Of a DNA stretch of 64,000 nucleotides, positions 31,473 through 34,725 are shown piece after piece; position 1 is the stretch's first letter; every line of letters begins with the position of its first letter. The position numbers were made by a program, and so were the translations under genes. The stretch is from positions 1,324 through 65,323 of the forward strand of contig CAZGBM010000002.1 in assembly GCA_964523975.1 (NCBI GenBank), in the 5' to 3' direction. The DNA is from an uncultured bacterium (GTDB taxonomy: Bacteria > Hydrothermota > UBA3072). The notes under the pieces are model-generated. The model was not told the origin of the DNA, did no database searches, and saw nothing but the letters and a program-made list of their open reading frames with translations.

Positions 31473-31721
31473 GTTTTTTCGTAGATAGAAAACAATATTT
31501 GATTAAATCAGATAAAAATTTTTATTTTTTTTAAAAAATTACTCAAACAGCCCTTGACTTATCAAAATGATTTTTTATTATAATTATATACATAAAAAAT
31601 GGAGAGAGACAGGTTTTTTATATTAAGTGTTAATGTTATAGGGTTTTTTCGGTATTCGGAAAAAGTGAAGACTTCATATCTCTGGTAAAAGAATGAATTA
31701 TTATTTAAAGGAGGGTAATTA

Positions 31722-33842
31722 ATGGAATGGCTTATTAGGAAAAGGTCAGGGAAAGTTGTTCCTTATAACAAAAAGAATATAAGCGTTGCTATTTCCAAAG
31801 CGTTAAAAGCAATAGGAGCGAAGGAAGACGCCAACGCTATAACCAATCAGGTTGAAACTTCCCTTTACATGAATTTTTTCCGAATCGGCAATATCCCAAC
31901 AGTAGAAGAAATTCAGAACTATGTAGAAGAAACTCTGATGCTGAGGAAGCTACCGGATGTAGCGAGAGCTTATATCCTTTACCGCGAAAAGAGAAATGAA
32001 GCTCGTAAGGTAGAAGATGTTTTCAGGGATGTTGAAGGGATAATGGGAAAATACTTAAAGAAAGAAGACTGGAGAGTTCAGGAAAATTCAAATATGAATT
32101 TTTCTCTCCAGGGATTGAATTTTTATGTTTCTTCTTCTGTTACCGCCCGGTACTGGTTAGGCAAGATTTATAGTCCCAGAATCAGAGAAGCTCACAGTAG
32201 CGGCGATTTTCATATTCACGATCTTGGCATACTCGGTCCTTATTGCGTTGGGTGGGACCTCCTGGATCTCTTAAGAGAGGGATTCAGAGGCATGAGCGGG
32301 AAAGTCGAATCTTCTCCTGCGAAACACTTAAGGAGTGCGCTTGGGCAGGTGGTTAACTTTATATATACTCTTCAGGGTGAGGCAGCAGGGGCGCAGGCTT
32401 TTTCTAACTTTGATACGCTCCTGGCTCCTTTTGTTAAGTTTGACGAATTATCTTATAAGGATACGAAGCAAGCTTTACAGGAATTTTTATTTAATATAAA
32501 TGTTCCTACCAGAGTTGGGTTCCAGACGCCTTTTTCTAATGTTACTCTGGATCTCAAAGTTCCGAAGAGTTTTAAGGACAGAAAAGTTATAGTGGGAGGA
32601 AGAGAACAAAACGCAACTTACGGCGATTTTCAGAAAGAAATGAACATGATAAATAAAGCTTTCGCGGAATTAATGATGGAGGGTGATGCAAAAGGAAGAA
32701 TTTTTACTTTCCCTATTCCCACATATAATATAACAAAAGATTTCGAATGGGAGAATGAGGATCTTATACCGGTATGGGAAATGACCGGAAAGTATGGAAT
32801 CCCTTACTTTAGTAATTTCGTTTCATCGGATATGGAACCTGAAGATGCAAGAAGTATGTGCTGTAGACTTCGTCTCGATAAGAGAGAATTAAGAAAGAGA
32901 GGAGGAGGGCTTTTCGGCTCCAATCCTCTTACTGGTAGTATAGGTGTAGTAACAATAAATATTCCAAGGGTAGCATACCTTTCTGGTGATGAGGAAGAAT
33001 TTTTTGATCGCCTTTCCAATATTATGGAAACAGCGAAGGAGTCGTTAGAGCTGAAGCGAAAAATTGTAGAGGATTTTACAAAAGAAGGATTGTATCCTTA
33101 TACAAGATACTACTTACGAGAGATAAAAAAAGCTATAGGGGCTTACTGGGCAAATCATTTCTCCACGATAGGGTTGATTGGGATGAATGAAGCCTGTGTA
33201 AATATGTTCGGGAAAGGGCTTTTGACTCCCGAGGGAAGTGAATGGGCGCGGAAAGTGCTTGAGTTTATGTTAGAGAAAATTTCAGAATTTCAGGAAGAGA
33301 CGGGAAACCTTTATAATCTCGAAGCGTCACCAGCGGAGAGTGCTTCATACCGCCTTGCGAGGGCTGATAAGGAAAGATTCCCGGATATTTATACAAAGGG
33401 CAAAGCCTATCCGTATTACACGAATTCCGTACATCCTCCTGTTGACGAAGTGGAAGATGCCTTTAGTCTTCTTGAGCATCAGGATCCGTTACAGGTTTTA
33501 TTTACGGGAGGAACAGTCGTTCATATCTTTTTGGGAGAATCTATTGAAGATTGGAGGATGGTAAGAGACCTTACCAGAAAAATAGTAGAGAGATTTTCTC
33601 TGCCTTACTTCAGCTTCACTCCGACTTTCTCAATATGTCCTGTGCATGGTTACATAAAGGGAGAGCATTTTTATTGTCCGTATCCTCACACAGAAGAAGA
33701 GTTGGAAGAATTTGGCGATGTTGCGGAACTAAACAGAAAGCAACTTACGGAAATGCAGAAAGGTTCTTACAAAAAACTTAAAGAAGAAAACAAGGAAAAA
33801 GACAAGAAAGAATTGAAAGTATTTTTAAACAAAGCAAAATAA
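31722..33842 (+). CDS. nrdD: anaerobic ribonucleoside-triphosphate reductase NrdD, lacking glycyl-radical domain
   Basis: N-terminal ATP-cone (VVPYNKKNISVAISKAL) and a class III RNR core. The C-terminal Zn ribbon reads CPVHGY...HFYCP. The ORF stops before any RxxGY glycyl-radical motif. nrdG follows. Confidence 0.8.
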   Translation: MEWLIRKRSGKVVPYNKKNISVAISKALKAIGAKEDANAITNQVETSLYMNFFRIGNIPTVEEIQNYVEETLMLRKLPDVARAYILYREKRNEARKVEDVFRDVEGIMGKYLKKEDWRVQENSNMNFSLQGLNFYVSSSVTARYWLGKIYSPRIREAHSSGDFHIHDLGILGPYCVGWDLLDLLREGFRGMSGKVESSPAKHLRSALGQVVNFIYTLQGEAAGAQAFSNFDTLLAPFVKFDELSYKDTKQALQEFLFNINVPTRVGFQTPFSNVTLDLKVPKSFKDRKVIVGGREQNATYGDFQKEMNMINKAFAELMMEGDAKGRIFTFPIPTYNITKDFEWENEDLIPVWEMTGKYGIPYFSNFVSSDMEPEDARSMCCRLRLDKRELRKRGGGLFGSNPLTGSIGVVTINIPRVAYLSGDEEEFFDRLSNIMETAKESLELKRKIVEDFTKEGLYPYTRYYLREIKKAIGAYWANHFSTIGLIGMNEACVNMFGKGLLTPEGSEWARKVLEFMLEKISEFQEETGNLYNLEASPAESASYRLARADKERFPDIYTKGKAYPYYTNSVHPPVDEVEDAFSLLEHQDPLQVLFTGGTVVHIFLGESIEDWRMVRDLTRKIVERFSLPYFSFTPTFSICPVHGYIKGEHFYCPYPHTEEELEEFGDVAELNRKQLTEMQKGSYKKLKEENKEKDKKELKVFLNKAK

Positions 33843-33858
33843 GGTAAAAGGAGTTATT

Positions 33859-34035
33859 TTGATAGAAGAATTGAAAAAAAACGAAATTGACCTTAAAGAA
33901 AAAGTAATGACCGTGAAAACCGAAGTTTATTCGAGAGTAGTTGGTTACTATAGACCGATTCAAGATTGGAACGAAGGCAAGAGAGAAGAATTTAAAGAGA
34001 GAAGATATTTGAAAATAGAAGAAGAAAAAGAGTAG
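33859..34035 (+). CDS. stand-alone NrdD glycyl-radical domain (58 codons from TTG; 42 from ATG at 33907)
   Basis: Translation gives ...MTVKTEVYSRVVGYYRPIQDWNEGKREEFKERRYLKIEEEKE*. This matches the NrdD C-terminal radical motif RV(V/C)GY...WNxGKxxEFxxR. An AGGAG RBS lies 6 nt upstream of the TTG. Not in the ORF track because it is under 60 aa. Confidence 0.6.
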   Translation: MIEELKKNEIDLKEKVMTVKTEVYSRVVGYYRPIQDWNEGKREEFKERRYLKIEEEKE

Positions 34036-34725
34036 GTGATCAAGTCTTTTTTAGGCAGCAGCATAATAGAGTACCCCGGTAAAATCTCATCAGTAGTTTT
34101 TATAGGTGGATGTAATTTGAGATGCCCTTTTTGTTATAATCCCGATCTAGTTTTACCTGAACTTGTAGAGAAACTGTCTGATATTTCTGAAGATGAAGTT
34201 ATAAAAAAACTGAAAGAAAGAAAAGGGTTTATCGACGGAGTATCTTTTACGGGAGGAGAACCACTTCTTGCACCTGGACTTATGTCTTTTCTTAAAAGAG
34301 TTAAAGACGAGATAGGAATTAAAGTAAAAATCGATACGAATGGAACTTTACCCGACAGATTGAAAACTGCGCTGCCTTTTATTGATTATATATCGATGGA
34401 TATAAAATCTTCGCCGGAGAAATATCCTGTTGCTACCGGAAATAATACAGAATTTAAAAAAGTGGAAGAAAGTATTGAAATAATAAAAGGTATTGAAAAT
34501 TATGAATTCAGAACTACAATGGTGCCCGGTATTGTGGATAAGGATGATATTAAAAAAATATGTGAAAAGATTGGTCCCGTGAGAAAATATGTACTTCAGG
34601 GTTTTAAAAACAGAAAAACTCTTTCTCCGGAATTTTCGGGAAAATCACCTTACCTAAAGAAATATTTGAAAGAAGCTTCTCTGGATTTAAAAGAGTGTGC
34701 CGGTATAGTCGAGATTCGAGAATAA
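34036..34725 (+). CDS. nrdG: anaerobic ribonucleotide reductase activating protein (radical SAM)
   Basis: Radical-SAM cluster motif GGCNLRCPFCYN. Sits downstream of nrdD. Confidence 0.85.
   Translation: MIKSFLGSSIIEYPGKISSVVFIGGCNLRCPFCYNPDLVLPELVEKLSDISEDEVIKKLKERKGFIDGVSFTGGEPLLAPGLMSFLKRVKDEIGIKVKIDTNGTLPDRLKTALPFIDYISMDIKSSPEKYPVATGNNTEFKKVEESIEIIKGIENYEFRTTMVPGIVDKDDIKKICEKIGPVRKYVLQGFKNRKTLSPEFSGKSPYLKKYLKEASLDLKECAGIVEIRE

Follow-up and report, generated by a model that had tools for sequence, protein, structure and literature searches.

Glycyl-radical enzymes (GREs) are textbook single-chain radical carriers, and oxygen cleaves them at the radical glycine. To our knowledge, the only known trans-acting radical protein is GrcA, a spare part for pyruvate formate-lyase (PFL). 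A 2026 review names the formate lyases as the only GRE class with small radical proteins (PMC13450708), and that review and the abstract of a second paper describe GrcA/YfiD as replacing the damaged glycyl-radical domain (GRD) of PFL in trans (PMC13450708; PMC8683613). Two-piece ribonucleotide reductases (RNRs) have been described in other classes. According to the abstract of one report, the catalytic chain of the class II enzyme NrdJa/NrdJb of Pseudomonas aeruginosa is made as two polypeptides from two adjacent genes (PMC4520616), and the class I nrdA-a/nrdA-b of Aeromonas phage Aeh1 is presented, again in an abstract, as the product of fission by a homing endonuclease, with halves that reassemble non-covalently (PMC3045599). 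Here we analyse a locus for the class III (anaerobic) reductase NrdD in a 64,000-nt stretch of DNA (the window) from an uncultured bacterium of the Hydrothermota (UBA3072; assembly GCA_964523975.1, contig CAZGBM010000002.1, positions 1,324 to 65,323 of the forward strand), where the large reductase gene ends without a glycyl-radical motif and a 58-codon open reading frame (ORF) just downstream encodes one. The locus probably specifies a naturally split, obligate two-subunit class III RNR from a three-gene operon, in which a small glycyl-radical gene stands between nrdD-large and nrdG. The open-access literature searched gave no account of a class III RNR in two pieces, and a prior account elsewhere is possible; the feature is real, conserved and apparently undescribed, a two-subunit form of a well-known enzyme.

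The closest described system is the one-piece NrdD with its activase NrdG of the Thermotoga maritima type (PDB 4COI, 4U3E; NrdD2-like). The two are alike in family (NF006126/NRDD), ATP-cone, barrel and MCCR loop, in a His-containing, zinc-ribbon-like motif that follows the last barrel strand and precedes the Gly loop, in the Gly loop itself (EVYSRVVGYxRPxxxWNxGKxxEF) and in an adjacent NrdG2-type activase gene. The window differs in placing the Gly loop on a separate 58-aa chain, in about 70 extra residues at the junction, and in CPYPH for CPxC in the ribbon. The P. aeruginosa system, compared by its abstract, is a B12-dependent enzyme without a glycyl radical, and in Aeh1 the mobile endonuclease gene still lies between the halves, whereas the two pieces here are separated by a 16-nt spacer without any mobile element.

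The large ORF (31722..33842, + strand; ATG start, TAA stop at 33840-33842) encodes 706 amino acids and belongs to the class III NrdD profiles. It covers positions 1-531 of the 562 in Pfam NRDD (E = 7e-179), preceded by an ATP-cone at residues 5-93, and scores 997 bits against NCBIfam NF006126 (cutoff 548) and 511 bits against TIGR02487 (cutoff 326). The finger loop SMCCRLRL, residues 378-385, contains Cys380 and Cys381; a double-cysteine finger-loop class of this MCCR type has been described (PMC9669993). Conservation was followed in two alignments, A1 with paired, concatenated large and small sequences from related loci and A5 with the query and 46 one-piece NrdDs. In both, C380, C381, R382 and L383 show no variation and C175 (in YCVGWDL) shows almost none; the NLEAxPAE motif is also strongly conserved. 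The large subunit therefore has the finger-loop thiyl-radical cysteines and the beta-strand A cysteine expected of NrdD. What the barrel polypeptide does not carry is the glycyl-radical motif (RVxGY): a motif search found no R..G[YF] anywhere in the 706-aa ORF. Judged from the two translations, this defining feature of NrdD is present only when both genes are taken together.

Towards its C-terminus the large subunit contains a zinc-ribbon-like motif, CPVHGYIKGEHFYCPYPH, at residues 639-656 (33636..33689, + strand; C639-x2-H642...C652-x3-H656, CPVHGY...CPYPH). The motif is putatively metal-binding, with C639, H642, C652 and H656 as candidate ligands. The canonical site has the form CxxC/CxxxH...CxxC, and the NrdD of T. 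maritima binds Zn through CxxxHx6CxxC (PMC4493059). The second knuckle here reads CPYPH instead of CPxC, and in alignments of the A1/A5 type the canonical fourth ribbon cysteine aligns to P655, beside H656. This CxxH...CxxxH ribbon is conserved in nearly all homologues of the split clade. Two split homologues, at loci L074 and L075, lack every Cys and His ligand of the ribbon (SPTSGY...DPNVQ and SPVSGF...DPNPI, respectively), which indicates that the metal site is dispensable in at least some two-piece enzymes.

The small ORF (33859..34035, + strand; TTG start, TAG stop) follows the 16-nt spacer (33843..33858) and sits in the +1 frame relative to nrdD. It is preceded by the Shine-Dalgarno (SD) sequence AAGGAG at 33848-33853, 5 nt before the TTG. 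The ORF encodes ...TEVYSRVVGYYRPIQDWNEGKREEFKERRY, within which TEVYSRVVGYYRPIQDWNEGKREEF places the radical glycine at position 29 (Gly29; codon GGT, 33943-33945), in SRVVGYYRP and followed by WNEGKREEF. It matches positions 533-560 of the 562 in NRDD (E = 7e-9; 35 bits against a gathering score of 26) and the last ~30 positions of three NCBIfam NrdD models (E = 1e-9 to 4e-7); by these profile scores the resemblance to NrdD is far beyond chance. Together the large and small ORFs tile the NRDD profile (1-531 + 533-560). The Pfam and NCBIfam searches brought up no dedicated family for the small protein, only partial matches to full-length NrdD models, and the Pfam scan at E <= 1 yielded no match to Gly_radical (PF01228), NRDD being returned instead. 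The exact 58-aa product is called as a gene in two independent assemblies (NCBI, Logan), and a search of 5.8 billion proteins recovered 132 stand-alone homologues, all of 43-96 aa.

Much of this arrangement had been read from the sequence in a first-pass annotation, which rightly described a 706-aa NrdD ORF ending at 33842 without RxxGY, a TTG-initiated ORF with its own ribosome-binding site, and a product made of the NrdD glycyl-radical loop and the WNxGK segment. The shift of frame that it reported also stands, and the distance of 17 nt needs correction, as the spacer measures 16 nt and the start codon begins at the 17th base after the stop. Its statement that the large ORF ends just after the ribbon does not hold, since a conserved tail of 50 residues follows.

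This tail (residues 657-706; 33690..33839, + strand; TEEELEEFG...KGSY...ELKVFLNKAK) replaces the direct connection between ribbon and Gly loop of canonical NrdD. In canonical relatives, such as L079 (...CPKCEKTTEIYSRIVGY), the Gly loop comes directly after the second zinc knuckle. About 3 residues separate ribbon and loop in canonical NrdD, against about 70 here (50 in the tail and ~20 in the N-terminus of the small protein). The tail is rich in Lys and Glu, and its motifs, conserved across the WOR-3 and Fermentibacteria homologues, follow in the split clade the order T[ED]EE[LI]xx[FY]G, (P)xGSY, a variable acidic/basic stretch and LF/VFLNxxK. The N-terminus of the small protein consists of a variable stretch of ~6-25 residues and then [KR][IV]KA[IV][KR]TEVYSR. 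Two fused homologues, P0236 and P0177, have a short 'HTKxxxxxYG' linker, and linkers of this type could represent intermediates or re-fusions.

The third gene, nrdG (34036..34725, + strand; GTG start, 229 aa), directly adjoins the TAG stop of the small ORF. Its product matches TIGR02495, the NrdG2 family (E = 4e-52, 176 bits, cutoff 131), as well as Radical_SAM, and has the CX3CX2C motif at C26/C30/C33 (CNLRCPFC) in the 229-aa reading. The cognate radical S-adenosylmethionine (radical-SAM) activase expected near a class III RNR is therefore present. NCBI and one JGI gene call give nrdG a length of 202 aa, from a start that removes Cys26, the first cysteine of the motif; the GTG at 34036 is probably the correct start, as it keeps the motif.

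To follow the split beyond the window, the large protein was scanned against one genome per species (GTDB), which gave 80 related loci at 58-91% identity; these were classified by anchoring the reading frame on the conserved core (tblastn frame) and following it to its stop. The metagenome-assembled genomes (MAGs) concerned are labelled WOR-3, Fermentibacteria, Aegiribacteria, Sabulitectum, Aminicenantes, Aquificota, Thermodesulfobacteriota, Acidobacteria and Moraniibacteriota. A separate small Gly-radical ORF occurs in 79 of the 80 species-level genomes. At 77 of the loci, as in the window, the Gly-radical motif lies in an ORF of its own immediately downstream of the large gene, and at two loci of Moraniibacteriota (L077, L078) an 87-aa small ORF lies ~180 nt downstream of it; L079 is the only fused, canonical NrdD among the 80.

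The 78 adjacent pairs, the window included, vary in the layout of the junction. The small ORF is in frame 0 relative to the large one in 7 pairs, in +1 in 37 and in +2 in 34, and the spacers span -14 to +49 nt; the most frequent lengths, -8 and -4, correspond to overlapping stop and start codons. Overlaps of the forms ATGA and ATGxxxxTGA, typical of translational coupling, are common. The small products measure 49-71 aa, and their ORFs begin with ATG in 67 cases, TTG in 10 and GTG in one, with an SD-like site before each. The combination of AAGGAG and TTG seen in the window recurs in the nine closest TTG-using species genomes (L001-L009), with large subunits 87-91% identical. The small ORF is under strong purifying selection. 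The ratio of nonsynonymous to synonymous substitution rates (dN/dS) against the window is 0.04-0.12, with dS near 1 or saturated, and the mean proportions of synonymous and nonsynonymous differences across all pairs are 0.87 (pS) and 0.17 (pN). Summed column entropy by codon position amounts to 20.9, 11.2 and 50.4, most of the variation falling at third positions.

The small gene lies between the catalytic and the activase genes in essentially every relative: nrdG was found on the same strand just downstream of it in 77 of 77 loci examined, at a predicted offset of -30 to +150 nt in 74. The sequences behind the related loci were assembled with SPAdes and MEGAHIT, and one of the records, OY970370.1 of the Fermentibacteria, was deposited as a complete 2.5-Mb chromosome. 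A 690-aa large subunit, P0386, bears the NCBI name of the cultured Thermodesulfatator indicus DSM 15286, and where a contig encodes this exact sequence, in a MAG and in a Logan assembly, it also has a 58-aa PF13597 gene 15 nt downstream. At the loci of the T. indicus-named protein (L081/L082) the gene calls include no radical-SAM/nrdG gene in the ~3 kb that follow the small gene, and the next genes encode 90-aa and 333-aa proteins without Pfam matches, unlike the 77 loci with adjacent nrdG.

Read from their sequences, the two ORFs are distinct genes, translationally independent of each other, and conservation and purifying selection are seen in both; it is virtually certain that the split of nrdD is genuine. 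Conservation, the three relative frames, the starts and ribosome-binding sites proper to the small ORFs and the dN/dS values together rule out that the split is an artefact of sequencing, a recent pseudogene or the product of a conserved programmed recoding. The first-pass annotation had offered a genuine two-piece NrdD and a frameshift, real or artefactual, as alternatives, and had proposed a comparison with the nrdD loci of related genomes; with the same split in 79 of 80 relatives and orthologues far from uniformly contiguous, the comparative data bear out the former and refute the latter.

The competing explanation that fares best, and is still improbable, holds that the small protein is a GrcA-like spare part for some other, full-length NrdD, and that the large ORF without a GRD is inactive or otherwise employed. 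GrcA itself sets the precedent, and the likeness, already drawn at first pass, extends to a small stand-alone protein with a glycyl-radical loop (58 aa, SRVVGYY), presumably activated by the cognate activase and acting in trans. It ends at the role of spare part. PFL, the partner of GrcA, has a GRD of its own and the large subunit here has none; GrcA belongs to the PFL-type Gly_radical family, whereas the small protein matches NRDD; and the gene of GrcA does not lie between those of enzyme and activase, as the small gene does in the loci examined. Orphan radical mini-proteins of the NrdD type, lacking an NrdD core within 4 kb, are encoded on many viral contigs, and trans-acting spare parts probably exist in this mini-protein family, to judge from such sequences. 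Only 64 kb of the source genome is in view, which also leaves room for another NrdD, but this window contains no NrdD-like sequence besides the nrdD/small pair. The large subunit, moreover, keeps its catalytic hallmarks (the invariant C380/C381/R382, C175 and NLEAxPAE), and we know of no function for a radical-less NrdD barrel. As the large subunit lacks a GRD, the small protein would be an obligate subunit and not a spare part.

Far less likely is programmed recoding, by which a +1/-1 frameshift or read-through would yield one fused NrdD and the small ORF would not be independently translated. The open frame of the small ORF does reach back to 33829, overlapping the 3' end of nrdD, and seven orthologues have both ORFs in one frame with a single stop between them. 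Yet neither relative frame nor spacer nor stop codon is constant, the pairs share no conserved slippery site, and each small ORF has its own start codon and SD-like site, often in the overlaps that typify translational coupling. In other clades the small gene lies ~180 nt or two genes away from nrdD, and the order nrdD, DUF7487, nrdG, 61-aa NRDD gene is one that no recoding model can explain.

A sequencing or assembly error, or a recent frameshift pseudogene of a one-piece nrdD, has a negligible chance of being correct: two ORFs in different frames and 16 nt apart are what a single-base indel would leave, but no single indel fuses the pair across the ~70 residues that stand in place of ~3, and the same architecture recurs in the relatives across many assemblers and all three frames, with the low dN/dS of the small ORF and an identical small protein in two independent assemblies. 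Just as negligible is protein trans-splicing, in which a split intein would ligate the two products. Inteins have apparently invaded this NrdD subfamily heavily, to judge from its many representatives of 1000-1900 aa with 2-4 matched stretches. The tail, with 50 aa, and the N-terminus of the small protein, with ~20 aa and in some homologues ~6 aa, nevertheless fall far short of intein halves and are too variable; Pfam shows no intein-family match for either piece, and no Cys/Ser/Thr +1 nucleophile is conserved before TEVYSR, so that this identity for the pair was rejected.

The two pieces were also modelled together with AlphaFold2. For the concatenated pair the predicted local distance difference test score (pLDDT) was 35 without an alignment; with an alignment of the 46 one-piece NrdDs the mean rose to 88, with a predicted template modelling score (pTM) of 0.81. 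The barrel exceeds 90, and the Gly-loop segment (model residues 721-760, corresponding to residues 15-54 of the small protein) reaches 79-91. The finger loop remains at 45-66, consistent with the mobility reported for this loop in the T. maritima type. Compared with the solved NrdD structures 8P23, 9D3X, 4U3E/4COI and 1H79, the model gives target-normalised template modelling (TM) scores of ~0.7-0.75. It shows both pieces, as modelled, to be compatible with the canonical NrdD fold; how the chains hold together lies outside the model.

In the two-subunit enzyme proposed here, the 706-aa subunit would supply the ATP-cone, the allosteric sites, the ten-stranded barrel, the Cys finger loop of MCCR type and the zinc-ribbon-like knuckle, and the 58-aa protein would supply the glycine loop with Gly29 as the radical-bearing subunit. 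NrdG would abstract the C-alpha hydrogen of Gly29 while the small protein is free or loosely tethered. The Gly loop would then insert into the barrel opposite Cys380/381 and make the thiyl radical as in one-piece NrdD, after which catalysis would proceed as in the MCCR-type enzymes (T. maritima, NrdD2-like). The conserved tail of the large subunit and the ~20 N-terminal residues of the small one might stand in for the covalent link. NrdG installs the radical on a GRD glycine, for which the GRD has to flip out of the core, and before activation the GRD is flexible by nature (PMC12662201). That the three genes are so tightly coupled agrees with stoichiometric co-production. A plausible benefit of the split is cheap repair, in that after oxygen cleavage at the radical glycine only a 58-residue protein would have to be replaced.

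Several points weigh against this proposal. We infer expression, complex formation and glycyl-radical formation on the small protein from sequence. The seven in-frame pairs might reach a fused chain by stop-codon read-through. The structural model was built as one forced chain, and the junction of tail and N-terminus has a pLDDT of only 54-65, the alignment carrying no information for that stretch. The repair advantage is speculation, and neutral gene fission at a naturally mobile hinge is an equally possible origin.

A promoter-like site upstream of nrdD (31554..31581, + strand; TTGACT, 16 nt, TATTAT; 10 of 12 consensus matches) is a weak candidate for the operon promoter: promoter-like sites in the consensus scan are not more numerous than in shuffled sequence, and the promoter and terminator scan of the window did no better than shuffled sequence overall. 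The 64 kb have a G+C content of ~37%, with no tRNA genes in the tRNA scan and no match to Rfam families at gathering thresholds.

The distribution of GRD-less NrdDs was examined more widely with an exhaustive HMMER search of 1.84 billion cluster representatives, in which the large subunit gave 6293 matches. Among the best 150 of these the ribbon region is present in 126, of which ~62 have a fused GRD, ~44 have a GRD-less tail of at least 12 residues and 20 end no more than 11 residues past the ribbon; some of the last may be truncated sequences. In a crude neighbour-joining tree of the intein-free core, sequences with a tail of the window type (CP[YF]PHT...[FY]G) form one contiguous, all-split clade beside a fused clade; P0386, the protein named for T. 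indicus, belongs to this window-type clade. GRD-less groups of other kinds, whose tails are coiled-coil-like or CPxCDxE/Cys-rich, alternate with fused clades in the tree. This pattern suggests several independent fissions. Partner genes were found in some of these groups: at L086 a 50-aa small NRDD gene lies immediately downstream of a GRD-less nrdD of another group, and L083 (2501-6523), whose context is of the MazG/DnaB kind, has the order nrdD, DUF7487, nrdG and 61-aa GRD gene. Around P0244, which lacks a GRD and has a coiled-coil-like tail, no small NRDD gene was found within 2.5 kb, so that an adjacent partner is absent for some GRD-less NrdDs.

Several of these proteins have peculiarities of their own. 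In the GRD-less clade of L083, proteins P0225, P0233, P0241 and P0190 have tails ending in an extra CxC or CxxC, and the small protein of L083 type also has extra cysteines; these cysteines hint at a metal site shared between both chains. In the Moraniibacteriota, members of the candidate phyla radiation (CPR), the large subunits of L077 and L078 keep a full CPxH...CPKC ribbon, and the 87-aa small protein (L077, 5203-5466) carries a CxxC...CxxC ribbon of its own before CDVYSRVVGF. Many of the cluster representatives P0121-P0270, including P0121-P0125 of the split clade, are 1000-1900 aa long with 2-4 separately matched stretches, which suggests that these long NrdDs carry multiple inteins or other insertions.

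Stand-alone radical mini-proteins are also encountered in viruses. A profile of the small subunit gave 416 confirmed matches in the viral contigs of IMG/VR, of which the best 80 (L087-L166) were examined. In ~60 of these the NrdD-type Gly-radical motif lies in a stand-alone ORF of 41-110 aa. By tblastn, with its limited sensitivity and on short flanks, an NrdD core was detectable within +/-4 kb in only 9 of the best 80 loci and an NrdG2-like activase in none. The contexts at L104 and L099 contain, by translation, Gln/Met-rich, sigma-factor-like and pentapeptide-repeat ORFs. Some viral small ORFs begin with 'MSKCGxKTEVYSR' and in this way carry the last ribbon Cys. A further case is the ANMV-1 virus of an uncultured archaeon (L167, 3180-3614; KP703175.1, 25525-25959), where the 144-aa AJP62049.1, annotated as 'anaerobic ribonucleoside triphosphate reductase', has the Gly-loop match of the small ORF at the 3' end of a coding sequence far too short for the catalytic barrel, next to a prohead protease and hypothetical proteins. 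The viral mini-proteins may be GrcA-like spare parts or hijackers of host NrdD, and those without a partner could recharge or hijack the host enzyme.

Taken together with the two-subunit enzyme of the window, these data allow a broader proposal, which we hold tentatively and with slightly more doubt than conviction. Class III RNRs would include a widespread and previously unrecognised architecture in which a diffusible, exchangeable glycyl-radical 'cofactor protein' of 50-90 residues is activated by NrdG in the free state, docks in a GRD-less subunit and is swapped after oxygen damage. Fission would have occurred repeatedly at the hinge between ribbon and Gly loop, and viruses would exploit the modularity.

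For annotation, the findings mean that GRD-less NrdDs are not pseudogenes, and that ORFs of 45-90 aa appearing as 'NRDD fragments' are real genes missed by short-ORF cut-offs. A split NrdD would be a convenient test bed for the way in which the activase recognises and activates the glycine loop, and for the entry of that loop into the barrel, open questions that now rest on a 'GRD-out' state which is hard to trap, and oxygen damage and repair could be studied on a 7-kDa substrate. Since Thermodesulfatator indicus has been cultured and its genome sequenced, the system is accessible. If the two-subunit reading is true, this would be the first GRE with its radical domain as a separate subunit. 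The conceptual analogue is the alpha/beta pair of class I RNR, which likewise keeps a stable radical on a polypeptide apart from the barrel. The class I beta subunit is a ferritin-like metalloprotein whose tyrosyl/metal radical is transferred over ~35 Å, whereas the 58-aa loop protein should insert directly, and the two are not homologous. The split NrdD would thus be the class III counterpart of the class I layout, with catalytic and radical subunits apart, an arrangement that has apparently evolved repeatedly.

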